From Cladosporium halotolerans (taxonomy: Eukaryota): 64,000 bases of DNA. The translations under genes and the position numbers were made by a program. The stretch is taken from assembly GCF_011745625.1 (NCBI RefSeq), contig NW_027191454.1, positions 1,054,001 through 1,118,000 on the forward strand, given 5' to 3'. Every line of letters begins with the position of its first letter. The stretch's first letter is position 1. Shown here in pieces: positions 21,042 through 43,215 of the stretch. The notes beneath the pieces are model-generated. The model did no database searches and was not told where the DNA came from. It saw only the letters and a program-made list of their open reading frames with translations.

Positions 21042-21274
21042 ATGACGCGCGCACGATGAGACGACATGGACGACTTGGGACGCGATGGATATAAATTACA
21101 CGCTCGGGCGACAGAACCAGAGGTAAATTTGATATCGAAATAAATGCAAACCTAGAACGAGAAAACGCATTCAGACACTACCCTCCTTGAATCGCGGCCT
21201 AGTAGTTTTGCTCCTTGCATGAGGTGTCAGTCGAGTGAAAGTGTGGAAATGTCTCCTTATGTAATTGATAATAT

Positions 21275-21830
21275 GTGGACTCGAGAAGGGGAGAAATGCA
21301 GTCAGCCGCTAGCGTCTAGCAACCAGCGTCCAATCGGCTCTCGATCTCGCGGACATGTAAGTGAATTGACACAGAAATTGAGATTTATTTAATTATTAAA
21401 AAGTTGACTCGAGATCGGAAGGAATGCAGCCAGCCGCTAGCGTCGAGCGTCCCTTGCCCAATCAGGTTTGACGTCCGCCGGTACATAAGTGAATTGATGC
21501 TTTGGAAAAAATAATGAATTAATTAAAATGTTGACTCGAGAAGGGAACAAATGCAAGCAGCCGCTAGGGCGCGGAGCTCGCTGGCGAATGACGTGAACCG
21601 AGTCGCGCGATGCAAGTGAACGATATTTTATTTGTTATTTAATAAATGTTGACTCGAGAAGGGAAGATATGTAGCCAGCCGCTAGCGCGAGAGGCTGACG
21701 GTCCAATGGCGTGTCTAGATTACCGCGCTGTAAGTGAAACTGTATTTTCATTAAAGATTTCACTCAATGTTGACTGGAGAGCAGACAGCAAGCAACCAGC
21801 CGTTGGCGTGCGGGATTCACTGCCGTACTT
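21275..21830. repeat. Degenerate tandem array A, 5 units, period 118-128 bp
   Basis: GACTCGAG/GACTGGAG anchors at 21278, 21406, 21533, 21651 and 21772, each followed by a purine-rich stretch and CAGCCGCTAG (CAGCCGTTGG in unit 5). Units 1-4 continue with AAGTGAA plus an AT-rich tract. Confidence 0.9.
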
Positions 21831-21976
21831 TTCGCATCACGATCGGTCAAACACGAACAGCTTATCGATGGATTGTAAACAGTAAATCGTCTTCAGTTGA
21901 CACCATTACATGGCAAGTACCCTATGAAATCATGATGTCGTTACAACAGAAAAGAACAACATAATCCTACACCCCA

Positions 21977-24900
21977 TTACTTCAACGACCTGAACAGAGA
22001 CCCAAAGAAACCCGGCTTCTTTTCCTTCTCCTTCTCCCTCGTCGAAGGCCTCCTTTCCCTTTTGTCACTTCCATGTCTGCTGCTTCTGTGCGGGCGATCA
22101 CGTCGATCCTCAGATCTGCCCTCAGTATCGCGATGAGATCTGTGCGAGCGAGAGCTGGTTTTCTCAGCACTCTGGGAAGGTGGAGCGTCATTTGGAGCGT
22201 CATCTTTACGATCCTCCTTGCTCTCAGCACTGCGGTGGGAGCGATGTGATCGTTCGGTCTTGCTGGACGTCGACCCTTCGTTGAGAAGAGGGGACTCTTT
22301 CATCCTGCTATCTCTCCTCTGTCGGCGCGCTGGATCCTCCAAAGGACGATAGCTGTCCGTCGATGTTCGCACGAGCAAGCCGGCGCGGGTGACCGACTCA
22401 CCCGTCGTGTCCGTGAAACCCTTGGGAAGAATTGGACGGTTCAGCTTAGGCGAGCCGGCTTCGACTTCTTTCTCAGGATGAGGTCTCCTCACATGCCCTC
22501 TCTCACTTTCTCTCAAAACACTGTCTCGCCTGCGCCTCTGCTTCTTTTCGTCTTCCTTCTCCCTGACAACTCTGCGGGCTTCGTCAGCCGCCGCAGCCAT
22601 AGCGGCTTTCTCGACCTTGGCGCGCAGCCGCTTTTTCTCGCGGGCAGCTTCCTCTTCTACTCGCCTCGTCTCTCGCTCAGCTTCTTCCGCTGCTCTGCGC
22701 TCCCGCCGACGACGGCGTCTCTCAGCTTCCTCTTCGGCAGACATCTCGTGCCGACGCGAGCGGTGCCTCTCGTCCCGAGCGCTGGACCCCTCGCGATGAG
22801 AACGGGAGCTTCGCTTGCGACCTGAGTGTTCACTGGCGCCGTTTCTGTCGCTGGAAGTCTTGTGCTGGCGTGTCCAACCATCTTGTCTTCGCTTCGAAGA
22901 GTCTTTGCTGAGAGTGGGCGAGAGAGGAGCTTCGAGGGAAGACACCTCTTTGTCGGCTTCGACAGGATCTTGGGTCGCTTCAGCAGGTGGTGGAGATGCA
23001 TCGTCGGCCTGTGCAGGGGCCTCTTCTGGTGGAGGCTCAACGAGTGCTTCAGCTGGTTCTGGTGCGGACTCTGGCGCGGGTTCTTCGCCGGCTGCTTGTT
23101 CTGCTTTGGCTGGTGCAGGAGGTTCTTCTGGAGCAGGCTCTGCCGTTACTTCAGCAGACTTGGGTGGTGATTCATCGCTAGCCGCTGATTCCTCCGGAGC
23201 AGGCGCCGCTTCGGCCGCTGGTTCTTCAGGCGCAGCCGACTCATCCGCAGGGGCAGGCTGGGCCTCATCTTGACCTTCAGTGCTAGGAGGATCAACGGCT
23301 TCCGGCGGCGGGGCATCCCCCGCTGGTTCAGCTTCTTTCGGTTCCTCGCTGGCGGGCGCAGGATCTGGCTCTGCCTTGTCTTCTTCAGTATCTTCTTCAG
23401 TGGCAGGCGCGGCGTCAGGAGCAGCATCGACAGCGGCGTCAGCGGCAGCTTCCGGTGCAGCTTCAGGGGCGTCGTCAGTGGCTCCACCAGCATCTCTCGC
23501 TTCTTCTATAGGCGCCTCTTCTTTGGCTTCTGCCGGCTCACTGGCTGCTTCTACTAAACTTTCTGCTGTCGGGTGGTCAGCCGGAATAGCCTCAGCCGGT
23601 TCTCCAGCTTCTGGAGCCGGGACGTCTGCGTCGCTGTTTCCAGAATCGCCTTCTTTCTCAACCTCATCTGCCGCGACAGCGCCGGCGTCGTCACCGCTGG
23701 CTGCGTCAGGCTCAGTAGCTTCAGCCTTCGCGCCTGCAGGCTCTGCATCCGCTCCTTCAGGGGCGTCGTCTTCGTTGGTGGCCTCAGTCGAGGCTTCTGC
23801 CTTGGGTTCCTCTTTGGGAACGTCACCTTCGGCTGCCGCAGGCGGTTCACCTTCTGCTTTCGTTGGCTCGGCGGGAGCTTCTTGATCTGGTGTAGGCTCC
23901 TCCGATGGCTTCACCTCATCGCCGGCAGCATCTCCTTCAGCGGCGAGAGCTTCATCGGCCTTAGGCTCAGGGTCAGCCTCGGATGAAGGTGCGTCGTCGG
24001 CTGGCGCTTTAGTCGATACAGTCGGTTCATTGTTGTCATCGGGCGTGGCATCTGCCGCATCATCGGCGGGTGCATCTGCAGCAGGCTCAGGAGCAGCAAC
24101 GTCTCCATCATCCGCTGGTGGTTCAGATGGTGAGCCTTCGTTCACTGCGGTGTCAGGAGATGGGTCGGTGGTACTATCATCCTTGCTCCCAGGCGCCGGA
24201 TCACCGGCTTTGACGGCAGGTTCCTCGCTCGGCGCGTTGGCAGGGGTGGCATCATCGGTAGGAGCTGGTGGTTCTTCCTTCACTTCCTCCAAGGCTGTTT
24301 CCTCAGGGGTCGCTTCAGGTGCGGCTTCAGCAGCCTCCTCAGGCGGTGGCACTTCCTTGCTGGTATCTTCTTCGGGTTTGTCTTCAGCCGCAGCTTCGGT
24401 CGCATCAGGCGCGGCCTCCACAAGAGAGTCAGCTTCCTCAGAAGGAGTTTTCTCTTCCTCATCTGGTGCAGGTGGTGGAGGCGGTGGTTCCTCAGGTGCT
24501 TTTTTCTCCTCCTTCGCAGCTTCGGCAGGAGGATTTTCGAAGATGGCTATCTTGTCTTTGACCTTTGATTTGCCCTTCTGGTCATCATTGCCCTTTGACT
24601 TTTTCTTTTTGCTTCTGGATGACGACTCAGGGGCAGGAGGTGGCGTCGGCTCTCGCTCAGGCTCAGGGGCTGACTCAATTGCTGGTGTGGCTTCAGCGGG
24701 CGATTCGCTGGCAGCATCAGCCTTTTCCTCGGCCGATTGTTCTCCTGGAGCGTCTGGTTGCGCGACAGCATTCTGCTCGGCTGCCTCAGAAGAAGCTGCA
24801 TCCGATGACTCTGGTTGGCCTGCATCAGCCGGAGCGGATTCCTTCGGTATCTCCGGGGCAGCTTCAGCTTCTGGCTCCGCTGGGGGCGGCGGAGGAGTAG

Positions 24901-26059
24901 AGGCTGAATCGCTGGGCGCAGCAGGCCCCTCATCGACGATGGCGACAATGTCGTCAGGAGACTCTGCAGGGGCAGCCTTCTTCTTGTCCTTCTTTTTCTT
25001 CTTATCCTTTGAGCTCGAGGAACTCTTCTTCTTCCTTTGAGTCGGCAGTGGATCAGTCGTCTCTGGCGTGAAGCTGACTTTCTTGTCGATATGAGCGGCA
25101 TCGACTGGTGCTTCGGTAGTTGGTGGGTCGGCCGCCGTTTCGGCTGCCTTCTCTGGAGCGGCGTCCGGTATATCGGTGGGCGGATCTGGTGCTGGCGGAG
25201 GGACATCTTCTGGGGCCGGGTCGGCACTGGGGACGTCGGCTACTCCATCGTCCGCTGAAGACTCAGTTGGCGGTCCAGATGACTCTTCGGGTGTGGCTTC
25301 AGGCGTCTCGATTGGGGGCTCTGGTGCTGGCGGAGGTGCTTCGTCGGCAGCTTCATCGGCAGGCTTGGTCTCTTCTTCCGTGACTGGTGTTTCGGGAGTC
25401 TCTTCGGTTGATGGTTCAGATGCTGCTGGAGCTTCTCCAGCCGCGTCACCTCCATTCTCTGGCTGCTCTTGTGCTTCTGCAGCAGTATGCTCGGCATCAG
25501 CGGCTGGTGCTGCAGTCTCTTCAGGTGGAGGAGCATCAGTTTCGTCTGCAGGCGGCGCTGCGGGCTCATCGGCCGAAGGTACATCTTGTGTAGCAGGTGG
25601 AGCTGTGGCATCAGCCTCTTCTTCAGGCTCTGGAGCCTCGGGAGGTGGCGCTGGCTCTTCCTGAGCAGGTGCGGCCTCTTCTTTCGAGTCTGCCGTGGGC
25701 TCTTTGGGAGCTTCAGGCTCTGGTTCAGCTGGGGCTGTTGCAGTGTCCTTTCCTGAAGGCAAGTCAGTAACTTGTGTAATTTGTTCATTAAATTTGAGTT
25801 TCATATTCCGACCTTCATCTGCTGCATGTTCGTCCGCTTCTTTGTCGGATTGCTCGTCGTCGGTGGGCACCGGTGGTGTAGGAGGCTTGATAGGGTATTT
25901 GTACACAGGTTTGTATGAGCCCTTCATGGCTTTCGGAGTGACAGTGAACTGCCCTCCTCCACGGTAGGGGAGTACACTCTCTCTCGGATCTCGCCATGCT
26001 GTTGTGGCGAGTCCTTGGAAGTTGTACCTCTTGATAATGTCTTCGACGTTGGTGGGCAT
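21977..26059 (-). CDS. Large low-complexity Ala/Glu/Pro-rich protein with basic Arg/Lys-rich C-terminus
   Basis: Uninterrupted 1360-aa ORF with good ATG context (GCCACCATG); predicted disordered; no recognisable domain. Confidence 0.8.
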   Translation of the reverse strand: MPTNVEDIIKRYNFQGLATTAWRDPRESVLPYRGGGQFTVTPKAMKGSYKPVYKYPIKPPTPPVPTDDEQSDKEADEHAADEGRNMKLKFNEQITQVTDLPSGKDTATAPAEPEPEAPKEPTADSKEEAAPAQEEPAPPPEAPEPEEEADATAPPATQDVPSADEPAAPPADETDAPPPEETAAPAADAEHTAAEAQEQPENGGDAAGEAPAASEPSTEETPETPVTEEETKPADEAADEAPPPAPEPPIETPEATPEESSGPPTESSADDGVADVPSADPAPEDVPPPAPDPPTDIPDAAPEKAAETAADPPTTEAPVDAAHIDKKVSFTPETTDPLPTQRKKKSSSSSKDKKKKKDKKKAAPAESPDDIVAIVDEGPAAPSDSASTPPPPPAEPEAEAAPEIPKESAPADAGQPESSDAASSEAAEQNAVAQPDAPGEQSAEEKADAASESPAEATPAIESAPEPEREPTPPPAPESSSRSKKKKSKGNDDQKGKSKVKDKIAIFENPPAEAAKEEKKAPEEPPPPPPAPDEEEKTPSEEADSLVEAAPDATEAAAEDKPEEDTSKEVPPPEEAAEAAPEATPEETALEEVKEEPPAPTDDATPANAPSEEPAVKAGDPAPGSKDDSTTDPSPDTAVNEGSPSEPPADDGDVAAPEPAADAPADDAADATPDDNNEPTVSTKAPADDAPSSEADPEPKADEALAAEGDAAGDEVKPSEEPTPDQEAPAEPTKAEGEPPAAAEGDVPKEEPKAEASTEATNEDDAPEGADAEPAGAKAEATEPDAASGDDAGAVAADEVEKEGDSGNSDADVPAPEAGEPAEAIPADHPTAESLVEAASEPAEAKEEAPIEEARDAGGATDDAPEAAPEAAADAAVDAAPDAAPATEEDTEEDKAEPDPAPASEEPKEAEPAGDAPPPEAVDPPSTEGQDEAQPAPADESAAPEEPAAEAAPAPEESAASDESPPKSAEVTAEPAPEEPPAPAKAEQAAGEEPAPESAPEPAEALVEPPPEEAPAQADDASPPPAEATQDPVEADKEVSSLEAPLSPTLSKDSSKRRQDGWTRQHKTSSDRNGASEHSGRKRSSRSHREGSSARDERHRSRRHEMSAEEEAERRRRRRERRAAEEAERETRRVEEEAAREKKRLRAKVEKAAMAAAADEARRVVREKEDEKKQRRRRDSVLRESERGHVRRPHPEKEVEAGSPKLNRPILPKGFTDTTGESVTRAGLLVRTSTDSYRPLEDPARRQRRDSRMKESPLLNEGSTSSKTERSHRSHRSAESKEDRKDDAPNDAPPSQSAEKTSSRSHRSHRDTEGRSEDRRDRPHRSSRHGSDKRERRPSTREKEKEKKPGFFGSLFRSLK

Positions 26060-27289
26060 GGTGGCTGTGGTGCTAGAGAGAACAGTGATGGTTCGATCTG
26101 ATCATTTTGAAGTGCGATAGAAGTACTCCTTCATGTTGTATCATATCATCGCTGAATACTCAGGCATTCGCTGTAGAGATAAGATCAAGTAGCCCTCCTT
26201 ACCTCGAGTAGATGACTTGAGGAAGCCTCTGGCGTTAGTCAGTGCATCTCGGGCGAACACGCTACCTGACAAGGACCAATAGGCCGCAAAAAGGAATGAC
26301 AGCAAACAGCAAGACGGCGATGACAACGCAGCGATGCGCCCCCTCGAAGCTCGTGGGTGCATTACAGTGGTGAGGCGGAATTGTACCGAGGGCTCCCAAT
26401 TCACCCGAGCGACGGAGTGACACAAACGCCATTCCGTTTAGACGCTTGGGATCGAGGCAAGGACCACTCATGCTGCAGCGTAACCTAACGGTGGGCGACT
26501 CGTTGCAGGACACGAGAGAGCACTCGCTCTTCGGCGTTCTCGAAGCCGGTGGGACGGCGAAGAACGTGACTTGCTCGCTAGGGTGCAGTTGGGTCGGCGT
26601 GCATACAGCGGCCGAAGCTTTTGCTCGCACGACGCATGGCTATTTCCGGCCGAGATTACTACCTGCTGGGAGAGCCCCGTCTGTATAGGTCGCCTAAGAT
26701 TGGAAGCATGACCCAAGAGTCCACGATCAACCTAAGGGGCAGTGGGGCAGCCAATGGAGCCAGGACGGGCATTGGCGGCAAGCCGTTTCCATGCGTCGGT
26801 GCAGGAAGTGAGGTGTCGCTTCGCGTCGACGTGGCCGCCGATGAGACGTTCACATGTTTGCAGAGATCCGCCCGGGTGACGGGCCGTGGTGCAGATGGGC
26901 TCGGACGAACTGCATGACATGCAAGTGCGGGTCGGGTTGACGGCAACAGCCTGGCGGTAAAATGAGTGTGGGCGTAGCAGTCAAGCCGCCAGAACAATCT
27001 CGTAGACATGACTATCGGGCCGGGCGTGGATGACTATCATCGTTCATACGTGTCGCTCCAATACCGATGCTCTCGCCGCTGGCCAGGCCGAAAGTTGCGC
27101 TGTGAACATTCACCGACACGTGACGTCACAAATGACTTCGAAGCCCGACGGGAGGAAACGCCGACCGACAGCGATGAATGGCGTGACGCGTATCTCGCTG
27201 TCTCACTTGAGGCATCTCCATGCGTTGGACGCCGCAAAGCCGTAAAATGACCTCCACTACGGCTTGAATGCAGGTCGGGCGCTTCGAAC

Positions 27290-29626
27290 ATGCCACGCTC
27301 TACCCTTCTGGCTGCGCTGGCCGCCGGCTTTCTCCTTCTACTCTCGACAATCCACCTGGTGCTGACCCTCGAGACGAACGGCATTCACAATGGTGACAAT
27401 CAGCGCCCAATTGCCTCTATGTGGAGAGGATTGTATGGCGAAGAGCCATCGAGAGCTTCCACGCGTCAAAGGAATGGCGACAAATATCTAGTAGGAGTTG
27501 GGAAAGCAGACATCACCGGCCCTGTGGTTGAAATAAACTTCATGGGTTACGCAGACCCGGCGCAGCAAGGGACTGGTGTAAGGCAGCGGCTATACTCCCG
27601 TGCTTTCATTGTGGGGGATATGGACAAGCCTACTGATCGGGTCGTGTACCTTGTTCTTGATACCCAATCTGGTGACACTGCTGTCAGACACGGAATCCTA
27701 CAGGCACTTGTCGATCTAGGAGACGAGTATGCAGTATACGGTCAGCAGAATGTGGCTGTGACCGGAACGCATTCCCACAGCGGACCAGGCGCGTGGCTGA
27801 ACTATCTGCTGCCTCAAATCACGAGCAAGGGTTTCAACAAACCTTCGTATCAAGCCATCGTTGATGGTGCTGTAGCTTCAATCAAACAAGCACACGATAG
27901 CCTTGCACCAGGGTATCTCGATATGGGTAGCATCGACGTGATGGACGCAAACATCAATCGCAGCCCATATGCATATCTTGCCAATCCCGAAGCGGAGCGG
28001 AAGAAGTATGATCACGACGTCGACAAGACATTGTCATTACTACGCCTCTCCCACGACACCAAGGATGGAGCCAAAGATATAGGCGTGTTCACGTGGTTCC
28101 CTGTCCATGGCACGAGCATGTATGGAAACAACACGCTCGTTACTGGTGACAACAAGGGCGTTGCTGCATACCTCTTCGAACAGTCTGTGAAAGACCCGAA
28201 TTTCGTTGCCGGGTTCAGTCAGGCCAACGTAGGAGATACTTCACCGAATGTCCTCGGAGCTTACTGTGAATACGGCGATCATGCCGGTGAGATGTGCGAC
28301 TTCAAGACAAGCCTGTGTGGTAACAAGACACAGCCCTGTCATGGACGTGGTCCGTTCTGGGGAAGAAAGGACGGTGGCACAGCCTCCAATTACGAGATTG
28401 GACGACGCCAGTATCAGGCTGCACGTGAGCTCTTCGGCAACAGTTCTGCCTTCACGCCTGTGCGTGGCAAGGCTGTCAAGCCATTCCATCAATTCGTCGA
28501 CTTCAGCAATCTGAACATAACGCTTCCGAATGGAACGGTGGTCAGAACGTGTCCTGCCGCAATGGGTTACTCTTTCGCTGCGGGTACCACTGACGGGCCG
28601 GGTGCTTTCGATTTCAAACAAGCACAACCGGGCGATCCGCATGCAAACCCTCTCTGGAGTGCAATTGGTAATAGGGTACACACTCCAAATGAGACCCAAA
28701 AAGAGTGCCAGGCGCCTAAGCCTATCCTCCTTGATGTCGGCGAGTCCGACAGCCCTTACGCTTGGAGTCCAAATATTGTAGATATCCAGCTTCTACGCAT
28801 CGGCCAATTATTCATAATTGTCTCGCCAGGCGAAGCAACAACAATGTCCGGTCGCCGCTGGAGGGAAGCTGTCCGCCGAGAAGCGGCCAGTTCCTTCTCC
28901 GACATCAAGACCGACCCGATTGTTGTCCTTGGTGGTCCCGCAAACACATACGCCCACTACATCGCCACACCCGAAGAATACAGCATCCAGCGCTACGAAG
29001 GTGCCTCAACCCTCTACGGCCCACACACTCTAGACGCGTACATCAACCAAACCCTCACCTTCCTCCCCCAGCTCGACGCCTCGACTTCCATCCCACCTGC
29101 CTCCGAACGTGGCCCTCTCCCGCCAATCAACACCAACAACAGCCTCAGCTTCATCACACCCGTAGTCGTCGACACCGCACCTCTCCTCAAGAAGTTCGGC
29201 GACGTCTCCCTCGACGTCAAACCCCGCTACGCCAGCGGCCAGACCATCGTTGCTAAGTTCGTTGGCGCCAATCCGCGCAACAATTTCCGCCTCGGCGGCA
29301 CGTTCGCTGCAGTGGAGAAGTTTGATGCTGGTGCTTCTGCGTGGAAGCAAGTTCGTAGCGATGAGGACTGGAGTCTACTATACGAGTGGACGCGCACGAG
29401 CACTGTGCTCGGCACGAGCGAGGTCACGATTAGTTGGGAGACGAAGTGGGAGACTGGAGCTTGGAAGGAGGCTTGTGGTGGGGCTCCGGAGGCTCATGGG
29501 GAGCTGATGCCGAGAGATGAGGAACTCAGGGGAAGGTATAGGTTGAAGTATTATGGTGATGCGAAAGGGCTGGGAGGGAAGATCACGGCTTTTGAGGGTG
29601 TGAGTGGGGAGTTTGAGATTGTTTGA
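27290..29626 (+). CDS. Neutral/alkaline non-lysosomal ceramidase
   Basis: GVGKADITGP, GTHSHSGP, VHGTS, GDNKG, GDTSPN (catalytic-site motif), AAGTTDGPG and QRYEGAST motifs; N-terminal signal/anchor. Confidence 0.95.
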   Translation: MPRSTLLAALAAGFLLLLSTIHLVLTLETNGIHNGDNQRPIASMWRGLYGEEPSRASTRQRNGDKYLVGVGKADITGPVVEINFMGYADPAQQGTGVRQRLYSRAFIVGDMDKPTDRVVYLVLDTQSGDTAVRHGILQALVDLGDEYAVYGQQNVAVTGTHSHSGPGAWLNYLLPQITSKGFNKPSYQAIVDGAVASIKQAHDSLAPGYLDMGSIDVMDANINRSPYAYLANPEAERKKYDHDVDKTLSLLRLSHDTKDGAKDIGVFTWFPVHGTSMYGNNTLVTGDNKGVAAYLFEQSVKDPNFVAGFSQANVGDTSPNVLGAYCEYGDHAGEMCDFKTSLCGNKTQPCHGRGPFWGRKDGGTASNYEIGRRQYQAARELFGNSSAFTPVRGKAVKPFHQFVDFSNLNITLPNGTVVRTCPAAMGYSFAAGTTDGPGAFDFKQAQPGDPHANPLWSAIGNRVHTPNETQKECQAPKPILLDVGESDSPYAWSPNIVDIQLLRIGQLFIIVSPGEATTMSGRRWREAVRREAASSFSDIKTDPIVVLGGPANTYAHYIATPEEYSIQRYEGASTLYGPHTLDAYINQTLTFLPQLDASTSIPPASERGPLPPINTNNSLSFITPVVVDTAPLLKKFGDVSLDVKPRYASGQTIVAKFVGANPRNNFRLGGTFAAVEKFDAGASAWKQVRSDEDWSLLYEWTRTSTVLGTSEVTISWETKWETGAWKEACGGAPEAHGELMPRDEELRGRYRLKYYGDAKGLGGKITAFEGVSGEFEIV

Positions 29627-29795
29627 GAGACGTGGGGTTCTACGATTCTGTGTATGGCATTACTGATGATGAGCTAGCTAGTGTACAGAAGAGAAGAAAC
29701 AATAATGAGAGTGCTCCTGTCGCGAGTTGTCCGTACTTTGTCAGTCAGTCACGAGGGATGAACAAAAACACCATAGGACAACTCGTGGCTCAGCC

Positions 29796-31463
29796 TCACT
29801 TCTTCCTACCCGCGCTCTTCTCGGTCTTCGATCCGGTACTAGCAGGCTTACGCGGACGGACACCGCCAGCTGATTTCGAGGGCGTTTTGCCTTCGCCCAA
29901 GTGAACAGCAATTTTAGAACTAGTCCCAGAGTTCTGGCTGTTGCTCGCAAATTTTGATCCTGGAACACTGGTGGCATTTTGTCCGGGATACTCGGGCGCT
30001 TTGCCAAAATCCATGAGCCTCATCTTGTTTTCGGGAGGAACTTGATCCCAATAAATGCCGTTGCTCGGCGAGGGTACAGTCTGTGCCCACCTTGACGCCA
30101 TCAGACCCTGCCACGTTTGCGTGGGAAGTGGTTCAGCACCTCTGGTGGTGTTTTCTGGGTGCTTTTGGGTTGGGACATCCTTGGTGGATAGCTCCTTCTG
30201 GGTTGAGACTTGGTGATCCGAGGTTTGACCATGGGCGTTGTTCACTCTGGTTTTCTGGACGTGCTTGCGGGACTGCGTGATGTGAAATTCTGGATGCTCG
30301 CCTGCAGGAACGAAGACTTTGCGAGGAGCGGGAGCCTGTTCGGCCTCTCTGTTTGCTGGTAATGGAGATGTGGCTGAGGCTGGATTGTGGGCGCCGCCAG
30401 ACACAGAAGTGGTCTTGTCAAAGCCAAGGGATAAGTAGGCGGTGGCTGGGCCGAGATCAATGAGGTCGCTCGTTGCAGAGGACTGGCGGGTCTTGGCCGC
30501 AGTTTCTGCTTCAGGCTGCAGCACTTCGGTCGAAGTGATTTGGTCTTGCTCGTCCTCTGAAGCTCGAATGCTTTGCTTTGAGTCGTAATCCAGTCCGTTC
30601 CCATCTTTGTCGGCATCAGACTGAGATGACGCGGCTAGCAATTCCTTCCTGACGAAGCGATCCTCCTTCTCGCTCTCAAACTCACTTTCATATCCACTGC
30701 TCTCACTATCCTGACTCCCTCTCCTCTTCAACCAATGCCCAGGCTTAACAGCCTCTCCCACCGTCGGAATCTTACTCTTTCCCAGCCGGACCCTCATTCT
30801 CTCTTGATACCAGCGTGGCACACCACCCCCGAACCCAATTTTCGCCAGAGTAGCCTTGTCCGGCATCTCGTGCTTGTACCGGCAACCTTGTTGCTCGAAA
30901 TCGCATTCGCCGTGGCGGATCCAGTAAGTGCAGTAGACCTTATCGTCGCTGGGAGGAGTGCTGGGAGTGCTGGAATTGTTTTTGAAGGAGCGAGATGAAG
31001 CGTCAGGGCTTGAGCCGACGATATCGTCGATTTTGGCCTGAGTCTGTGTCTCGAAGTTGTTCTGGCTACGCCAATTCGTTGCGATCGTGGATGGAGGCAG
31101 CTTGCGGGTGGGAAGAGATGTCGACTTGGACATGGTGTCATGCTCGGACGCAGTACGTCGGTGACTCGATTGGCTCGCATCCGCGTGGCGGTTTGCGTTG
31201 CTCATGTCGGCTAGATGAAAGAAGCGGCCGGTGAAAGGCTGCGTTCCCACCAGGGTCATCCCACTCGCGCTCTCGATGTTGATCACACGCTGTACGCCGT
31301 CCAGGCGGATGTTGAAAGGCAGTTCGTCGGCCGGAATGAGTGGCACGAAAGTTCCATTGCTGCGAGAGATGAAGTAGCGTAGCTGAGGCGGTTGAGAAAA
31401 CGGAATTTTGGACGAGGTTACGGCCGGGTTGGCCGATGACGAGGTGTCGTCGCCCGTAGCCAT
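29796..31463 (-). CDS. CCCH (C3H1) zinc-finger protein
   Basis: CTYWIRHGECDFEQQGCRYKH zinc finger and conserved N-terminal YFISRSNGTFVPLIPADELP. Likely start MATGDD at 31463; an in-frame upstream ATG exists at 31568. Confidence 0.8.
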   Translation of the reverse strand: MATGDDTSSSANPAVTSSKIPFSQPPQLRYFISRSNGTFVPLIPADELPFNIRLDGVQRVINIESASGMTLVGTQPFTGRFFHLADMSNANRHADASQSSHRRTASEHDTMSKSTSLPTRKLPPSTIATNWRSQNNFETQTQAKIDDIVGSSPDASSRSFKNNSSTPSTPPSDDKVYCTYWIRHGECDFEQQGCRYKHEMPDKATLAKIGFGGGVPRWYQERMRVRLGKSKIPTVGEAVKPGHWLKRRGSQDSESSGYESEFESEKEDRFVRKELLAASSQSDADKDGNGLDYDSKQSIRASEDEQDQITSTEVLQPEAETAAKTRQSSATSDLIDLGPATAYLSLGFDKTTSVSGGAHNPASATSPLPANREAEQAPAPRKVFVPAGEHPEFHITQSRKHVQKTRVNNAHGQTSDHQVSTQKELSTKDVPTQKHPENTTRGAEPLPTQTWQGLMASRWAQTVPSPSNGIYWDQVPPENKMRLMDFGKAPEYPGQNATSVPGSKFASNSQNSGTSSKIAVHLGEGKTPSKSAGGVRPRKPASTGSKTEKSAGRKK

Positions 31464-32042
31464 GCCGTCGGTGTAGGGGTATGATATAAAGTGTGATGGC
31501 GGAGAAATTAGGTGGTTGTTGTGGCTGGGATGTTGAGAGAACTTCTTCCATGGGCAATAAATACTCATTCTCTGGCGACCACAACCTTAAGGCAAACATC
31601 CGCTGCTTGTAGCATGTTAACGAGATGCTTTTCTGAGACCAAGCGAGACCAAACATCTATGCGGATCTCAAAGGCGGCGTCAAGTGGAGCAAACGACTAG
31701 GCCATAGTATTTGCGCACGCATGAAAGGAAATGTCTTTATGCAGGTAGATGATTATCTCATATGCACCCCGACCTTTGTCTACAGTCGGGTATTCGCATG
31801 TTCATGCATTGTCAACCCCCGTCGACAGACATCATGATGCAGTCAGCCGTGACACTCTCATGTGTGCGATTCGGCAGCCAGCGTACACGTTGCGTCCGTT
31901 TGAGCTGCATCTTCATCAAGAAATGAGTCTCCCCTTTGGGTGGTGGACGAATCGAACGTAGTTCCTTAGGTCGTTTCCAGATGCTTGACGAGTCGTGGTT
32001 TCTTTGAATTCCTGTAAATCGCCACTTTATAGTACAGTGTCT

Positions 32043-33935: not shown

Positions 33936-34511
33936 TCTGCCAAAACATTGCGGTAATTAGAAGGAACAAACATTTGTTGTCAAAACAAGGGATGAAGTAT
34001 TCTACCAGGATCGAATTCAGCTCACAGATTGCAGGACGATCATGGCGTTGCATGTGGCGTCGAGCCGCCAGCTGAATCCTCCACCATCTTCATCCAATCC
34101 AATGTCTGCAGATGTGCGCTTGCTCACACTCGATAAGCTTGGCGAGCTTTTTCAACTAAGCGAGCGGTACTGATGATAGATTTCACTATTTTGACTCCTG
34201 AAGCCGGATACGAGCCGTCAGACCCAGTGTAAGGATTCTGAAAAAGCGGGCCGCGCCATCATGTCAGCCATTGCCTGTCCCATGGCTTGCTCGAAAGACG
34301 GCAGAACAGGCAGCAATATGGATCCTAGAGGTTGAGGCTTGATCCCGATAAAGTATTATTACAAGCAAGACGCCTGGGCCAGATAAATAACCAGCATCTC
34401 TATTGAATCTCTCACCACGACAACATCCTTCTCACCTCACGTCGCCTCATCCACCTTGAACCATCTTCACATTAGCAGCCCCGGCCCTCTCCTTCCACCA
34501 ATACACAAACA

Positions 34512-35231
34512 ATGTCCTCTTCCCCCTCCTCAACAGAAGCGAAACAAACCGTCCTCGAAACCTACAACGCCCTCGCCCCCTGGTACCTGACCTGGATCAC
34601 CTCACAATCCACCCACCCCAAGACCGACCCCCGCACAACCTACACCACCCTCCTCCTCTCCTCCCTCCCCACCACCTCCCCCAAAGCCCCTCAGCTCCCC
34701 CAAATCCTCGACCTCGGCTCCGGCCCCGGCATCCCCACCGCCGCCCACCTCCTCCGCGCCGGCGCCCACGTCCTCCTGAACGACCTCTCGCCCACCCAGC
34801 TCTCCCTCGCCGCCTCCTCTCTGCCCCCTCACCTCCTCGCAAACACAACCTTTCTCCCCGGCGACGCAGCGGCCCTCGCCGTCCCGCCAAACAGCTTGTC
34901 CGGCGCCGTCTCCTTCTTCGCGCTCTTCCACCTCCCGCGCGCCGAGCAAGCGGCGCTGCTGAGGAAAGTGCACGGCTGGCTGCGCCCGGGGGCCGTGTTT
35001 GTGTTTAACCTGGGTACGGTGGAGGGCGAGGAGGTGTGGGGGGAAATGATGGGGAGGGGGATGTTTTGGAGTGGTTGGGGGGTTGAGGGGAATCGGGGGA
35101 TGGTGGTTGGGGCGGGGTTTGAGGTGTTGAGGGAGGAGGTTTTGACGAGTGAGGTTGATGAGGGGGTGAAGTTTTGGTGGTGTGCTGCGAGGAAGGCGGT
35201 GGGGCAGGGGGATCGGAAGAGGGAGGGGTGA
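34512..35231 (+). CDS. Class I SAM-dependent methyltransferase
   Basis: Motif I ILDLGSGPG, acidic NDLS, ALFHLPR and WLRPGAVFV. Confidence 0.88.
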   Translation: MSSSPSSTEAKQTVLETYNALAPWYLTWITSQSTHPKTDPRTTYTTLLLSSLPTTSPKAPQLPQILDLGSGPGIPTAAHLLRAGAHVLLNDLSPTQLSLAASSLPPHLLANTTFLPGDAAALAVPPNSLSGAVSFFALFHLPRAEQAALLRKVHGWLRPGAVFVFNLGTVEGEEVWGEMMGRGMFWSGWGVEGNRGMVVGAGFEVLREEVLTSEVDEGVKFWWCAARKAVGQGDRKREG

Positions 35232-35510
35232 TGATTGGGAGGAGAGGGGATGATGACATTGCGGAATTGGATGATTCTTCTGGCAGGAATGAAGTAGAAT
35301 AAATTCCGTCTATCGTTTCATTCGTTTGCCCGGAAAAAGAATAGCAGTAAATCAAGCAATCTATACATCGACCGAATATGACAATACGGCGCCCTTGGAC
35401 GCCCGCCGAAGCAACAACGCCCGCTAACGCCCCAAGATGGCGTCGACTCGCTTTTCGACTTGCTCGGTCGCACCGTGACGGAAGCCGGGAGGGGAAATCA
35501 CAAGTAAGCC

Positions 35511-37294
35511 CTACTTCCTCCTGCCCTCCTCCCGGAGCTCCCTCTCGCGCGCGAGCTGCTCTTCGCTCAGGCAGCCGATCCTGTTGAGAATGTCCTTGTG
35601 CTCCCCCAAGTTCAGACCAGATGAGATTCCGCCTTTGCCCTTGCGCTTGCTGCTGGTTTTAGAAGAGCTGGAAGGCCGCGAGGAAGCGTACTTCAAGTCT
35701 TCGGCGGTGGCAGGGACTTCGATGAATTTGCGCTCGGAGCCCGCGGTAGCTTGAGGTTCGGCGCGGAGTTTGTAGGGCACGCCGTTGTTGTTGTGTTTGG
35801 GGGCGTGGACGGTGACTTCGTCGTCAGCCTCGATCTCGTCGTCTTCTTCGTCGCAGCCTTCGTCGTCAGAGCGCGAGTCGTCGGCGGGGTGGCCTTGGAG
35901 CACTTTGGCGACGACGCGGCAGATCATGAAAAACCATGCGAGGGTGATGAGTTGCAGTCCTCCCAGGAGTCCGAGGAAGATGCTGCGGATCTCGGAGTTG
36001 AAAGCGACCGTTTTGGCGCCTGGGTTCAGTAAAGGCTGGAGCAGGTTGTCCATGACGCCCACTCCTCCATCTTCGCTTAAGCGTGATGAGTCGAGTGTGC
36101 TGTAAGTACCGTAATGCATTGTGTCCTTGGAGACGTGCGCATAGATGCTCCAGCAAATCGAGAGGTAGCCGAAGTGTCGAGCGGCGAGCCAGACAACGAC
36201 GAAGAGACCGAAGGCAATATCGCAGGCCGTCTGCAGGCCCATGTAACGCAACATTTTGGCAGCCTGGGAAGTTTCATTAGCTGGGACGTCGCCAAAAACA
36301 CGACACGGTGGAACCGTACCGGGAAGATAAGATCAACAGCATCCATGAGCACGAGCACTGCATTACCAGCGCGCATCTGCCTGTAGCCGTAGGAGAAGAA
36401 CAGCAAGCTGACCGTGACAATGTGGTGTGTGAACATTTGCCAGTGGTCTTTGCGGCGCTCTTCGATATGAATGACAAAAAGTTGCTGCACCCAAAATGCG
36501 GTCTGAGAAAGGTAGTAGAGCTTGAGCGAAGTACCAAGCACCAGGCGTGGGTAGTCGCGCCAGAGGGAGATCAAGAGGTCGTTAAGCTGGCCACTCAGGG
36601 TGGTTGCGCTCGATTGGGGAGTGTCTTGGATGAAGACCACAAGACCCCACGTCCAGTAGACGGCGTAGTAGAGCAAAAGGTATGCTTGCTCCGCAAATCT
36701 GCCGCATAGTTAGCACTGAGTGAGCCGTGGCATTCGTACAATGGCTTATACGTACCGAACTTTTGTCTTCTTTTGCCTGATTCCCATGAATCCAGCCAGA
36801 GGCAGGAGCACGTAGTCCATCCACGCCGCGCGCATGCCCGTGAACAATATCACGCAACCGAGCACCAGATACATGTCCGCCGGGCCGATCAGGAACTCGC
36901 CAGGAGCGCCTGTCGGGTACTGCAGCGTAAAGAATGCGCCAACGCGCTCTCTCAAGCTCGGGAAGAGCACGTATGTCAAAGCTACCAGAAGAATCATGTT
37001 GAGAGAGATCCCAAGCTGGTGATTCACCATCGCCTTGCGCAGCATGCCGCCGATGCTCTCCTGTTCCGCCGGTTGCGCCTTCTGCTTCAAGAATCCCGCG
37101 GGGCTTGCGCAGATCGCTACGTCCTCGACACCCTTGCCAGCTCTTGTATTTCGCGACCCTCTGTTGTCTTTGCTGTAGCGAGGAAGGGGGCTGCTGTCGG
37201 AGAGCGATCCGTTGCTGGGTTTTTCGGAGAGCTGGAAGCCCGCGCGGAGGCCAGGCACATCATGCAGGCCGGAGCCTGCTTGTGCCTGTTCCAT
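35511..37294 (-). CDS. Ceramide synthase (sphingosine N-acyltransferase, Lag1/Lac1 TLC family)
   Basis: Lag1 motif RRKDHWQMFTHH, RFAEQ across intron ~36699..36755, second intron ~36264..36319, DDSRSDDE acidic tail. Start MEQAQ at 37294 is inferred. Confidence 0.92.
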
Positions 37295-38539
37295 GGTCGG
37301 TGTAGAGTGTTTGAAGGGCTTGTCCTGACCTGATAGGAATGGGTGAGCCCGCGAATGCGCGACGTGTTTGGTCGGCCGGAGTTCTGGCGAAGCTAGTCGT
37401 CGGCCCAAGTCGTCAAGTGAACGTGGCCCGCCGTGTTCACCGCTCTATGCGATCGGTTGTGTTGAGATGCTGAGGCTTCGTCTCGCGTCAAGCAGGACGT
37501 ATGGGTGAGGTCGCAGTCAGTAGAATGGCATGCGGAAAAGGCGAGTGCGCAACAGCAGCGAGCGACGCGCAAACAGCGAGCGAGGGGTCGTTCGACGTCG
37601 GCTCGACTAATGTGATTTCTCCCAATGGCGATGAAGCCAGCAAGCCGGACATGGGGGGGCCAAGGCACTAGCGGGGACCCTGCGTTTCAGCACTCGCGGC
37701 TGCCGCCAGCGGTCGTGGGCCCTGCCGCGAGAGTGTTTGAGCCTGAGGCTTGTTTCATCGCAACCGACTATCCGCCTAGGTATCCAACCTCACTCCCTCA
37801 AACCTTGCGCGCCGCATTGTCGGCAGTCGGCCGCGGTCACATGCTACGGCTTCCGAGACCTCACTTACACACCGCGCAGACCCCGCGACGATCATGTGAC
37901 GCCGGCGCATTAGTCCTGCGCCAATGTGGCACACCAACAGCCGAAGCGTAGCCCTCGTGCCTTCCCGTGCGAGCGTAGGCAAGTCAAACAGCCCCATGCC
38001 ATCCTTCACCTCGCCAAAGACCTGCACGCACCTCCCTCAGCTCATGACAGCCCTGCCGAGGTGCACACAAGGTACCTAGATGGCGCCCCGTGATCATACG
38101 TCTCTCCACTCTTCCCATCCCACGCTCCTCAGGTAGGTCGGCCAAAATCACTCCTTCTAGACCTGCCAGCCTTGCGCCATTGCAATACAGCTGCACTTTT
38201 TGCATTGACACATACAACATCTGGCGAACCCTCTCCCGCCCTCTGCTTGCTCGTCGGCCCCAGCGGGTTGGAAGTTGAGTGAAACCTGCCAGCCGGCTGA
38301 GCACACATTCGTCATCCTCCCACTTCCTGCAGCTACCCGCCTCTTGCGCTCCCGCAAGCCGCGGTTTGTGTTTGGCAGCTGCGAGGCCCGATCTGCGACC
38401 TAAGTACATCTCCTACAGCCTGACTTTGTGCTCAACCACTTCGCAAGGCTGGAGTCCTACCATCGCGCCATTCCCTCGATTCGACTATAACAGACGGCAA
38501 TCGGTAAGGCGCACCACACTGGAACAACTACACGCAGCA

Positions 38540-41146
38540 ATGGACGAGACTTCACGTCGGGAGCCTGCGGATCGCGCGCAATCTCCGCCTCTGGCGGACA
38601 TAGCATCCGGCTTAGGCATTGACATCACATCTGCAAACCGCGAGTCCCAAGATGCTGGACTGGGTCACACGCCGTTGCGAACTGTATCTTCTATCGAGGA
38701 CACAGCAGGAGATTGGACACCGGACGCCTCGCAACCTTTCGTGTCGCCGAGTTCACTCGACGGTCTTTCTGGATCCACGCAGTACGGATTCTCTCCTGCC
38801 AGTACGTTCAGCCCGCACACGAAGTACTATTCGAAACAATCGCCCTCAATCGCATCTCCATCAACACATGCTCCACGCGTCGAATCACAGGCTAGCCTTT
38901 TGTCGAAGCATCACAGCGCTTCTCTGAATTCCGCTTATGGCGAGTTCGTCGCTCAGCACAAATGTCCGAGCATGCGAAGCATCAAGGGTCCTCGCAAGAC
39001 GTGGATGTCGATACTCACAATCTGCCTGTCCGTATACTCGACGGCTGTGTCTGGCTTGTTCTTCTTCATAGCTGTGGTAGGTCCAAGCTATCCGGGTATA
39101 CGCACCAATGGAAGGATAACAGCATCCTCGGCGGCCTTCCTCACCACCATCCTCGCAAAAACTGTCGAGTTGTCATTTGTCACAATCATCATCGCTCTCC
39201 TTGGCCAAGAACTATCAAGAAAAGCATCGAGCATTCACCGCCGCTCGGGCGTCACACTGGCTCAGCTGAGCATGAGAAACTGGATCACACAGCCTGGTAC
39301 CATGATCTCTCGATGGGAAAGCGTACGCTATGCTGGGCTGACCACATTGGGCGTCGTTTCGATCGTCGCCGCAGTCCTTGCCATGCTGTATACATCTGCT
39401 GCTACTGCATTGGTGCAGCCTCGGTTAAAGTTTGGAGACTGGAAAGTGAACCCAATGCAAGGCAATGTTCGGGCATCATTCGCGAACAAATACCACATTG
39501 GCGAAAAGTGTCCCAGCCCTCTATCAAAAGCGATGGACAGTGGTGCCCGCGAAGAGACCTGCGTCTCGATTGAGCATGCTGCGATGGGATACCACAACTA
39601 TTACTCTTACCTTGAGCTATGGTCGAAGGCCAGCAAAAATTCGTTAGCTTTTGGAGAAAGGCCCAATGGCACTGCCGTCTTGAACAACGACACGACGGTT
39701 ACTGCCCCGTGGGTCGGCAATAGACTTGGCCCAAGAGCAGCCTTCGAGCAAGTATACAACGAGACTGAAACTGTGATCGTCAACAATGTGAGCCTCGCCT
39801 TTCCACACACCGGAGTTGCTTCCGCAGCGAAGGACAAAATCAACAACATCATGCAACCTGAAGATCTGGATGGAATGGGTGTCTACCTTGTCAACGCCTC
39901 CGTTCCATCCCCCGTGATTCACGTCCGCTGCGCGACCGTGTCTGAGAAAATGTTGGATCCTTTGGTGTCTTCACGTTGGAATGAGATCAATGAGACTGTC
40001 AATGGAACATCATGGCCAGATCAACTTCGCTACACGGACAACCACTCCTACCCATTTCTTGGTGGCACCGAACTGGACGATGTCTTCGAATGGGGCGAGA
40101 AATATGGCCCTGCGTCCTGGCCACCTGTGTTCCCGAATATGCCAGATGAGTACAATACTGTCACCAACCAGACCAGCACATACGGACGTACATCGATATA
40201 CGTGCTCGGCAAAGGGCCTTACGACAAGTCTGACAAGAATCCAGACCTGAACAACTTCCTCTGCCAAATGCAGGTCAGCCAGACGCCTTACTGCTACACC
40301 ACCTACCAAGCCAGCGCCCAAGGCGCCACACTAGAAGCCGTCTGCGGCGACGAAGACAACTGGCACGAGATGCAATACATCGCTAGCGTCCCCGACTCCC
40401 TCACCCACAACGAAACCCGCTCCAAAGACTGGCCCAGCGTCGCCGGCCAATGGGCCCTCGCCCTCGCCCTCAACGACGGCTCGTTCGGCGGCAAATCCTC
40501 CAATGCCCGCCTCCTAACCCAACTCCTTCTCCGCGAACCCGAACTCGACCCCGCCAAACCCTCTCTCGCCGAAGCCCTCGCCGTCCTCGCCGGCTGCACT
40601 CTGCTCCAATCCACCCTCGACGCCCCCTTCGTCCCCTACTGGGAGTACACCGGCGAGACAATCCTCGAGGACCCCGCGGGCGTCTACGAGCCCTTCAACG
40701 CCACCCTGCGCGCGCAGCAATACGCTTCCGGCGGCTCAGAGCCCTACCAGAAGGCCTTTCACGTCGTGCTGCTGGGCGTCTTCGCCCTCAACGTCGTCGC
40801 CCTGCTGTATTTCGCCCTGCATAAAACTTGGTACACGGATTTCTCCGAGCCGCCCAATCTCTTCTCGCTGGCCGTTAATTCGCCGCCGAGCGAGGCGTTC
40901 GCGGGCTGTTGCGGCACGGGCCCGCAGGGGCGGGACTATCGCGTTGCGTGGACGCTGGAGCAGGACGACGGACATGTTTTTGTGCATAGTGGAGGGAGGA
41001 GGGAGGGGGATGGGGGGGTTGTGGGTGCCGGTGTGGGTGGAGGTGGAGGTTGGTTGCAGAGGCGCAAGGCGTGGAGGAGTTTGGGCGCGGGGAGCCCGGT
41101 TGCGCAGAGGTTGGGGAAGCTGAGGAGGTGGAGTCGGGAGGTTTGA
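38540..41146 (+). CDS. Conserved fungal multi-pass membrane protein of unknown function
   Basis: Intronless ORF from ATG 38540; S/P-rich N-terminus, about 3 TM helices, large N-glycosylation-site-rich luminal region, C-terminal TM and DFSEPPNLFSLAVNSPPS motif. Confidence 0.8.
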   Translation: MDETSRREPADRAQSPPLADIASGLGIDITSANRESQDAGLGHTPLRTVSSIEDTAGDWTPDASQPFVSPSSLDGLSGSTQYGFSPASTFSPHTKYYSKQSPSIASPSTHAPRVESQASLLSKHHSASLNSAYGEFVAQHKCPSMRSIKGPRKTWMSILTICLSVYSTAVSGLFFFIAVVGPSYPGIRTNGRITASSAAFLTTILAKTVELSFVTIIIALLGQELSRKASSIHRRSGVTLAQLSMRNWITQPGTMISRWESVRYAGLTTLGVVSIVAAVLAMLYTSAATALVQPRLKFGDWKVNPMQGNVRASFANKYHIGEKCPSPLSKAMDSGAREETCVSIEHAAMGYHNYYSYLELWSKASKNSLAFGERPNGTAVLNNDTTVTAPWVGNRLGPRAAFEQVYNETETVIVNNVSLAFPHTGVASAAKDKINNIMQPEDLDGMGVYLVNASVPSPVIHVRCATVSEKMLDPLVSSRWNEINETVNGTSWPDQLRYTDNHSYPFLGGTELDDVFEWGEKYGPASWPPVFPNMPDEYNTVTNQTSTYGRTSIYVLGKGPYDKSDKNPDLNNFLCQMQVSQTPYCYTTYQASAQGATLEAVCGDEDNWHEMQYIASVPDSLTHNETRSKDWPSVAGQWALALALNDGSFGGKSSNARLLTQLLLREPELDPAKPSLAEALAVLAGCTLLQSTLDAPFVPYWEYTGETILEDPAGVYEPFNATLRAQQYASGGSEPYQKAFHVVLLGVFALNVVALLYFALHKTWYTDFSEPPNLFSLAVNSPPSEAFAGCCGTGPQGRDYRVAWTLEQDDGHVFVHSGGRREGDGGVVGAGVGGGGGWLQRRKAWRSLGAGSPVAQRLGKLRRWSREV

Positions 41147-41489
41147 TGTGTGCGTGGAGGTGGGTGCTGGATGGATTGGGGTCTATATCTCTCCTTGATT
41201 GTTTGTTCGCGTCTTGCTGTTTCTTGCTTTCGTTTTGATGGTGCTAGATTGGCGGACGACCGAGATTTGACGGCCCACTGCTGTGCTGTGCTGCGCTGCG
41301 CTGGTTTGATTTGCGATCTTCGATTACAGAATGCATGCGTTCGAGCCTGAAGAGCGATAATGCCGATAGAGGGATGGTTAAAGACCTTTCGATTGAATCG
41401 AATCAAGTTTTGCTACCTTGATATTCGCGTCTACATCTACCTACTCACATGCGGTACCTTGGCTTACATCGTCGTCCCAAACTCAGATG

Positions 41490-43215
41490 TCGATTGGTTC
41501 GGCTGCTGCCGGCGCTAGCTCCGGGCTCAAAAGTTCAAACACCTAACTCGGCCAGCTCGCTCAGCTCGCCCAGCTCGTCAAGCTCGTGCAGCTCAATGAG
41601 CTCGTGTGGCTCGACAGCACTCAATTGTCTTCGATGTTTGGGACGACTCGCTGCCACCTTAGATGGGCAACGACGTCTCAGGGCCACAAAAATTCATTGA
41701 TGCAATCGATCGCGAAACCAAATTTTGTCAGGAAAGGGAAGGGGTTGTGGATCATCGATGTATTCGGGGATAACCAGAGACCTCCTCCCCTAGATCTTGT
41801 AAATGAGGTATATGATGGTTCGACTGATCCCGGGACTAGCTGCGGGCTCAAAAATCGACCCGTCCAGCTCGACGTTGTTCGGCCGTCTCGACCAGCTTAG
41901 CACTTTCGACGAGCTCGGAATAATTCGACTGTCTTCGAATAGCTCGACATGTCGAAACATTCGCCGCGACTGTGATCGAAGCCGAAGTCTCAGGATCACG
42001 GATTTCACGAAGCAATCAATTTCAAAGGAACATTTCGTTGACGAACGGATGAGTTCGTGGACGATCTTGTTAGTCGATAAATTCATCGGAAACTCGATAG
42101 ACATCTACCAACAGCGGCCAATCATTGGCTCGGCTGCTGCCGGGACTAACCGCGGGCTCAAAATCCGACACGGCCAACTCGACGTCGCTCGGCCATCTCG
42201 CGCAGCTCGGGAGGCTCGGTCAACTCGATCAGCTCGGTGAGCTCGAGATGGCTCGACAAGCTCGAGGAACTTGACTATCTCGGCACGACTTGACGGACTC
42301 TATCGCCTGCAGAGCCTCACTTCGCTTTGGATTCCAGGCAAGGTATTTCATCGATATTGGCTTCTCTCTGATGTTCTACCCACGCAGATGCCGGAGCTCT
42401 GTAAATGCAACGCCTGGGCACAATTGGAACACAAGGCGACTGGATTCGGTCATTTCTGGCTGTAATTCGCTCGGTTGGCGCCGGAGCTAGCTGCGGGCTG
42501 CGAATCTCGGACAGTCAGCTCGATCAACTCGCTTAGCTCGATCAGCTCGGGCAGTTTGACAAACTCGGCATTGAAGAGATCCAACGACGGTGGACCAACG
42601 ACGATGGACACTTCAGACTATATGATTTAGTTTGCAAGGAGTTCGTCGAATAAATAATATCAAAGTCACACATTACAGAAGGAGGGGTGAACGTTTCTAG
42701 GAGATCGATAGGACATTGGACTGTACGGTACCAACTCCAGACGTCCTCCTCCCAATCCCACAATGGCGCTCTATCGTTGCCTCGGCCGCGGTCGGGGCTA
42801 GCTACGGACCCCAATCTCGACTATTTCGCGCCAGCTCGCGCCAGCTCGCGCCAGCTCAGTGAACTCGACGAGCTCGACAACCCGGCAAATCTCCATGTCC
42901 CTTCTCTGTCTAAGACCGAATCTTCGAGTTGGGAATCATCTCCTGAGGAGTGGCTTCTGAGTTCAAAGCTCCTCCTTACTTGAAAGGAAGTATAAGAGTT
43001 TATGGAAAGCCCACAAGATATGTAACATACCTTACAATCCCAGAAATCTACGCAACCTCCTCTGGCAAATCCACTCCTTGCGGTCCTCCATTGGTCCGGC
43101 TTTCACCGGCGCTAGCTGTGGGCGCTCAGCTCGGCCAGCTCGCCGTCTCGATGAACTCGGCGAGCTCGACGATCTCGGTTTGGCTCGGGAGGGTCGAGAG
43201 GCTCGAGATCTACCG
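41490..43215. repeat. Degenerate tandem array B, 6 units, period 310-341 bp, with internal 9-bp (NAGCTCGNN) sub-repeats
   Basis: CTAGCT/CTAACC anchors at 41515, 41836, 42146, 42487, 42798 and 43112 inside a GG(T/C)TCGGCT..CCGG(C/G)(G/A)CTAGCT.CGGGCTC-like block, each followed by AGCTCG/AACTCG runs. Confidence 0.88.

Follow-up and report, generated by a model that had tools for sequence, protein, structure and literature searches.

In a 64,000-nucleotide stretch of the Cladosporium halotolerans genome (contig NW_027191454.1, positions 1,054,001 to 1,118,000; hereafter the window), two intergenic arrays lying 20 kb apart carry the same bipartite word, a GCTAGC palindrome followed after exactly 16 nucleotides (nt) by a CCAAT box. 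Array A (21255..21880, + strand) holds four well-kept units and a decayed fifth, with AT-rich linkers between them; array B (41490..43230, - strand) holds six units of 310-341 bp. The blocks of this word, their exact spacing and their conservation above the intervening sequence are read directly from the DNA, and the B-type core is also found singly at further loci in related fungi. We tentatively propose, at a little under an even chance, that both arrays are locally multimerised forms of a composite protein-binding element that would be read as double-stranded DNA.

A first-pass annotation of this DNA had listed ten units, four in array A and six in array B, and claimed for them a GCTAG(C/T)-N16-CCAAT motif of invariant spacing. 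All ten are there, position and letters alike, and the spacing is real in both arrays and also at other loci of related fungi. Against a background of 72 GCTAG and 125 CCAAT words on the two strands of the window, the exact pair GCTAG-N17-CCAAT (that is, GCTAGN plus 16 nt) is found five times (A1, A2, A4, B1 and B6), while there is no pair at any of the spacers 9-15 and 17-25 and a single one at spacer 8. When one mismatch is allowed in ATTGG/GCTAGC, seven matches are obtained at N16, six of them in the arrays, as compared with 13 summed over the 12 other spacers in the range 10-22. Thus, within the window N16 stands out over neighbouring spacers in both counts. The seventh match is a stray at 2371 (-), probably due to chance, and apart from it the remaining 60 kb of the window contain no further copy of the core. 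These counts are not independent because the units of one array copy each other, and the real test of the spacing therefore lies in loci outside the arrays. The annotation was also right that the left half extends as AGCC-N-GC-N before GCTAG in both arrays; in the wider family this extension is reduced to GCC at -7 to -5 before GCTAGC. Measured from start to start, GCTAGC and CCAAT are 22 bp apart and TGACTC and GCTAGC 31 bp apart. Because these distances are near two and three helical turns, the blocks should face one side of the helix, in agreement with the earlier suggestion of half-sites on one DNA face.

The internal conservation of array A differs between blocks and spacers. Each module spans 90 nt on the + strand: A1 (21276..21365) reads TGGACTCGAG...GCTAGC (21308-21313), N16, CCAAT (21330-21334), N24, AAGTGAA; A2 (21404..21493) has GCTAGC at 21436-21441 and CCAAT at 21458-21462; A3 (21531..21620) has GCTAGG at 21563-21568 and CGAAT at 21585-21589; and A4 (21649..21738) has GCTAGC at 21681-21686 and CCAAT at 21703-21707. 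In the decayed edge unit A5 (21771..21860, +), GTTGGC replaces GCTAGC and CCAAT is missing. The four good units start 128, 127 and 118 bp from one another and follow the layout TTGACTCGAG...GCTAGCG, 15 nt, CCAAT, 24 nt, AAGTGAA, with two extra fixed blocks, TGACTCGAG located 31 bp before GCTAGC and AAGTGAA located 29 bp after the start of CCAAT. Pairwise identity reaches 85% (199/234) in the left block, 90% (27/30) in CCAAT and 100% (42/42) in AAGTGAA, and drops to 32% (29/90) in the first spacer and 39% (56/144) in the second. These spacers are GC-rich and as alike as unrelated sequence, yet the four units do not differ by a single insertion or deletion over their 90 nt, which argues that spacer length is under constraint. 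An AT-rich stretch follows 45-65 nt past CCAAT.

Array B has a different architecture. Each unit consists of a core, then a tract of a 9-bp unit, (CGAGNNNNN)n on the minus strand, present in 5-10 copies, and then some 180-200 nt that barely align. On the + strand the 34-nt core reads ATTSG-Y-TCGG-N6-CCGG-N-GCTAGCT-NN-GGGC or, more loosely, ATTSG-N2-CGG-N6-CCG-N2-GCTAGC-N3-GGGC. The six cores, all on the - strand, are B1 (41493..41526, ATTGG..GGGC on the + strand), B2 (41814..41847, in which CCAAT has decayed to CCATC and one CGG half is decayed as well), B3 (42124..42157, GTTAGT replacing GCTAGC), B4 (42465..42498, with the CGAAT variant), B5 (42776..42809, GCAAC in the window) and B6 (43090..43123). 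In the sequencing runs X4, X19 and X24 described below, position 42780 of B5 is G, which gives CCAAC. The 9-bp tract of B1 lies at 41547..41618 (-) and similar tracts are found at about 41868-41950, 42178-42285, 42506-42570, 42816-42880 and 43130-43210. Among the six cores, TCGG, CCGG, GCTAGCT and GGGC are 83-92% identical and ATTGG 69%, as compared with 48% for the 6-nt gap and 24% for the 3 nt before ATTGG. The inverted triplets CGG-N6-CCG are intact in four of the six cores (B1, B3, B4 and B6) and in none of the four units of array A.

What happens outside the arrays is more telling. Metagenome contigs were scanned with the array B half-motif TCGG-N6-CCGG-NR-CTAGCT-NN-GGGC, a pattern from which CCAAT is absent, and six loci were obtained. 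Three of them (L002, L004 and L006), all from one metagenome, have a GC content of 54-58%, the window itself being at 57%, and in each of them one base separates TCGG from a preceding ATTGG or ATTCG, the very arrangement of array B. By comparison, neither word occurs at the expected base in the three high-GC metagenome loci or in the four prokaryotic matches found in 596 Gb of genomes. Thus, the second half-site stands at the invariant distance in three of three fungal copies and in none of seven controls. With these copies added, the nine B-type cores are 88-94% identical in TCGG, CCGG, GCTAGCT and GGGC and 76% in ATTGG, and 35% in the 6-nt gap and 27% in the 3 nt before ATTGG; in the metagenome copies the four first blocks, and with them CGG-N6-CCG, were required by the search pattern, and ATTGG was not.

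These three loci differ in their gene context. L002 bears a HET-domain gene with the core about 530 bp past its end, on the 3' side; L004 bears a weak, below-threshold match to the ANAPC2 C-terminus and its core occupies part of the 240 bp that separate two convergent stop codons; in L006 the core lies 5' of a gene, about 155 bp upstream of the start codon of a Cbp3-type chaperone. The element had been placed outside promoters by the annotation, and this holds for arrays A and B, between convergent 3' ends, but is not general given the L006 copy. Beyond the core, L002:1-130 and L004:330-440 (-) share about 100 nt, as CTTCCGCA, CTGACTCT and a second CTAGCGTGCCTT, and the shared blocks are separated by free stretches of equal length.

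Further copies may exist in other strains. Four sequencing runs, including strains X4 and X19 (DNA), X24 (RNA-seq) and X9, were compared with 23351-43350 of the window; neither read depth nor missing cover in X9 and X24 carries weight here. Contigs with loose ends stop at the core borders, at 41489-41492/41527 in X4 (3-4 contigs) and at 42465/42500 in X4 (2-3 contigs) and X19 (one contig). These contigs match 41490-41527 or 42465-42500 only, a core of about 36 nt; beyond it they are unlike the window and lack the 9-bp tracts. We read them as probable further single copies elsewhere in those genomes. The flank of the X4/X19 copy with the loose end before 42465 resembles the L002 flank.

How closely are the two arrays related? 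Their consensus sequences agree at 17 of 25 jointly conserved columns, a score reached by 1 of 2000 column shuffles for a pair that was picked after the fact, and it is because of this choice that we call the arrays very probably, rather than certainly, related. Two further features link the types. In 9 of the 11 CSAAT copies (S, C or G) the box is followed by C/G and then A/G, in A and B types alike, and a TGACTC/GAGTCA hexamer, noticed post hoc, stands 31-36 nt after the GCTAGC start in array A, L002 and L004. The annotation had called the arrays unrelated-looking, and this holds only in part: array A indeed lacks the CGG-N6-CCG conserved in the spacer of array B, but the bipartite skeleton is common to both.

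To explain these results we propose the following. The common skeleton would be a CCAAT box (CSAAT, usually with C/G and A/G behind it) with the GCTAGC palindrome 16 bp upstream. The box could be read by the CCAAT-binding complex (CBC; HapB/C/E) and the palindrome by a dimeric factor. In the B type, the 16-bp gap would be a putative site itself, formed by inverted CGG triplets six bases apart and of the kind bound by Zn2Cys6 dimers, with GCCC as a further part. The proteins would thus be held side by side at fixed distances; in array A the gap is free, and the skeleton would be flanked by two further blocks. Between convergent genes, such a platform may serve in chromatin opening, as a boundary, in the control of antisense or read-through transcription, as an origin or in recombination. 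Here it is binding, the identity of the binders and the platform role that we infer. Short blocks that hold exact distances over free intervening sequence, and do so at different loci and in different species, are the signature expected of proteins placed side by side on double-stranded DNA. CGG-N6-CCG and GCTAGC, two of these blocks, are palindromic, and palindromic blocks are a mark of dimeric DNA binders. The earlier idea of binding sites for a protein complex therefore survives in part: the short blocks at fixed distances, two of them palindromic and free between, fit binding to double-stranded DNA better than a coding or RNA function, but the binders themselves are candidates.

Several observations weigh against this proposal. 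About 25 fixed positions make a long core for an ordinary transcription-factor site, and it is not obvious which gene a platform at convergent 3' ends would act on. The 100 nt that L002 and L004 have in common point to copies of a single element rather than to independent sites, and the loose-end contigs of X4 and X19 might conceivably come from array B of these strains, as strongly diverged units of it. The link from array A to the B type is the weaker one, as it goes back to the 17 of 25 columns of a post hoc pair. Of the B-type core, array A has no more than CCAAT, GCTAGC and the 16 nt between them; CGG-N6-CCG and GGGC are missing. It is also known from this window alone, given that only the array B region was compared with relatives; the A-type pattern GACTCGAGA-N16-CAGCCGCTAG has no match in the metagenome contigs, a result uninformative on its presence in relatives.

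The L002/L004 likeness is also what one would expect if the core were a short selfish or neutral dispersed repeat, similar to a miniature inverted-repeat transposable element, a short interspersed nuclear element or a satellite, amplified by unequal crossing-over and kept through copying or gene conversion. Copies lie mostly in gene-poor 3' intergenic DNA, which tolerates insertions, and among strains array B varies in structure, through skips of 192-391 nt and through stretches exchanged for other sequence. X19 shows 167 differences from the window over 37340-41760 (about 3.8% left of 41760) but a single one within the 308 nt of 42152-42459; such a mosaic is consistent with recombination at array B or close to it. 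Between these two segments, from 41760 to 42152, about 390 nt are replaced in X19 by 406 nt that mostly do not align. We nevertheless consider a dispersed repeat unlikely. Beyond the 34-36-nt core the copies abruptly cease to be alike, L002 and L004 excepted, inspection by eye showed neither terminal inverted repeats nor target duplications around L004 and L006, and a free 6-nt gap amid fixed blocks, together with saturated spacers devoid of insertions and deletions, is unlike repeat decay. The absence of other copies from the remaining 60 kb also speaks against it, and the arrays resemble neither the 5S rRNA gene of the window nor any other window region.

Each unit could instead give rise, as a small transcription unit or as its promoter, to a non-coding RNA or antisense transcript not described so far, with the CCAAT box and adjacent blocks as upstream promoter elements and the AT-rich linkers of array A as TATA element or terminator. 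In array A, CCAAT is indeed followed by its AT-rich stretch, and the L006 copy sits upstream of a gene start. The RNA-seq run X24 yields one contig of 396 nt over 42473-42869, at 94% identity, a weak hint of array B transcription since DNA may occur in such libraries. We regard this view as quite unlikely: there is no conserved fold, with consensus energies of -0.5 and -3.39 kcal/mol and almost no covariation, and no Rfam or tRNA match. A structured RNA was considered separately and set aside, as the RNAalifold consensus of array A is near 0 kcal/mol on either strand, with almost nil covariation. Rfam searches of the arrays and loci, at the gathering threshold and then up to E = 10, gave nothing better than E = 0.36; no tRNA genes were found, and a telomerase-RNA template search detected no CCCTAA-type template near the arrays.

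Array A might also be a separate element that resembles the B-type family by chance, with array B and the dispersed copies forming one family. The small number of shared positions (about 17), the post hoc selection of the pair, the missing CGG-N6-CCG and GGGC and the lack of a known copy elsewhere would all be natural under this explanation. The rarity of the observed score among shuffles, the same C/G and A/G flank after CSAAT in both types and the hexamer at equal offset in array A, L002 and L004 (post hoc, as said) make it improbable. Finally, a remnant of repeated coding sequence is very improbable and largely refuted by six-frame reading: although one frame reads (Q/E)-P-A-A-S ... N in both arrays (CAG CCA GCC GCT AGC versus GAG CCC GCA GCT AGC, the two A/B mismatches falling at third positions) and ATG to TGA measures 69 nt in all four array A units, in-frame stops interrupt three of these four units, the open frame shifts between B units, third positions are among the fixed ones and first positions are variable (NCC, NNC), ATG occurs in array A only, and single copies lie in non-coding DNA (the 240-bp convergent gap of L004 and upstream of the start in L006).

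The gene setting of the arrays bears on the possible role of a platform. Array A is flanked by an open reading frame (ORF) encoding a Duc1 domain, which ends at 21041 (+), and by a 1374-aa acidic ORF ending at 21977 (-); array B lies between a 955-aa ORF ending at 41146 (+) and a 912-aa ORF ending at 44081 (-). These gene ends, read from ORFs and domain matches, support the location of both arrays between convergent 3' gene ends, as first annotated. With L004, this is the setting at three of the three loci that have two resolved flanks. The convergent gap that holds array B, about 2.9 kb, is large for this genome; within it, beyond the stop codon of the 912-aa ORF (-), some 830 nt at 43253-44080 remain open both in that frame and on the other strand, with a composition that is not coding-like despite the open frames. 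The 1374-aa stop-free ORF (21977-26101, -) encodes a very acidic, Pro/Glu/Ala-rich, low-complexity product with a basic tail, in which no Pfam domain was found; its GC content falls from 0.72 at first codon positions to 0.48 at third positions, and neighbouring genes differ from this.

Elsewhere, the window encodes neutral ceramidase, CorA and Cdt1 domains next to Duc1, and the nearest Atlas clusters of the ceramidase are for the most part from Ascomycota. A 66-bp tandem repeat (17900-18036; 2.1 copies, 80% matches) lies within the ORF that bears the Cdt1 C-terminal domain. The 5S rRNA gene, dispersed and complete, lies at 62508-62627 (-) and is the sole Rfam match in the window (RF00001, 78.5 bits).

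Fungal sites known so far are mostly short, with a flexible arrangement, and long composite DNA words with rigid spacing are, to our knowledge, rare in fungal genomes. Neither a GCTAGC-N16-CCAAT element nor arrays of this sort turned up in word searches of open-access text, and an earlier description may exist. The element would be an unusually long, rigid, dispersed CCAAT-box composite, multimerised outside promoters. Its 34 bp with about 25 fixed positions, kept at dispersed loci of related species, offer a handle for pulling down its putative binders, and one can ask whether in filamentous ascomycetes the CCAAT complex also works outside promoters, be it in termination, at boundaries or origins, or in recombination. 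Should the element prove to be no more than a small family of repeats, it would still be a useful annotation marker for these genomes. As a long shot, we envision that the 34-bp word could be a sequence-specified chromosomal element of filamentous ascomycetes (an origin, a recombination hotspot or a boundary between convergent genes), read jointly by the histone-fold CCAAT complex, a zinc-cluster dimer and a palindrome binder, with the arrays as its strong, multimerised forms. The divergence switch of X19 inside array B would fit a recombination-active site.

Budding-yeast replication origins are a first point of comparison, as they are sequence-defined and favour convergent intergenic regions. 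Here too we see a long conserved word at low density, in a convergent setting at the three resolved loci. Unlike those origins, the element is GC-rich and multimerised; we know of nothing comparable in filamentous ascomycetes. Zn2Cys6 dimers of the Ppr1 and UaY type bind inverted CGG triplets six bases apart. CGG-N6-CCG with its free 6-nt gap, in four of the six array B cores and the three metagenome copies (where the search pattern required it), resembles such a site, but here it lies between a CCAAT box, 2 nt off, and GCTAGC, and it is missing from array A. Other candidate binders (AbaA, BrlA, HSF, CreA, AflR and NirA) do not fit when compared by eye, and neither do the B-box/TFIIIC, the CENP-B box and Helitron ends.

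The closest likeness is to sites of the CCAAT-binding complex. CSAAT is present in 11 of 13 copies (8 CCAAT and 3 CGAAT), the exceptions being B2 (CCATC) and B5 (GCAAC), and where position 2 of the box varies it always changes from C to G (three of three: A3, B4 and L002). A preference for C/G then A/G after CCAAT is familiar from NF-Y work. CSAAT is the stated consensus of the fungal complex (PMC7144946, PMC4954732), CGAAT is a proven CBC site in cyp51A (PMC4954732), and the complex covers 13 nt downstream of the box (PMC7144946). The annotation's proposal of a CBC composite is therefore plausible in part: CSAAT with its flank would fit the complex, but the arrangement is not the known CBC:HapX motif.

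In Aspergillus, according to PMC7144946, that motif combines CSAAT-N12-RWT with TKAN half-sites. As described there, the two systems are alike in that a CCAAT box is combined with partner sites at fixed distance, CCAAT and CGAAT are both accepted, and the sequence next to the box is free, being covered by the complex. They differ in the side of the box on which the partners stand, 3' for the HapX sites and 5' for the fixed blocks here, and in that single promoter sites are described for CBC:HapX, as opposed to arrays between gene ends. In fact, RWT at +12 is found in none of our 13 copies. For HapX, TKAN would be expected 11-23 nt downstream; the sole fixed block there, AAGTGAA of array A, starts 25 nt after the box, with TGAA at +28, and array B has no fixed block downstream of the box.

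A precedent for a duplicable composite is the 34-mer enhancer of cyp51A in Aspergillus fumigatus with its tandem repeats TR34/TR46/TR53, which, according to PMC4954732, is likewise a module of about 34 bp that can duplicate in tandem and combines a CGAAT CBC site with sites for other factors. There the sequence is another one, and two to three adjacent copies act in one promoter on a known target gene; the elements described here are set apart by their 4-6 copies, spaced 118-341 bp between convergent genes, and by their dispersed single copies.

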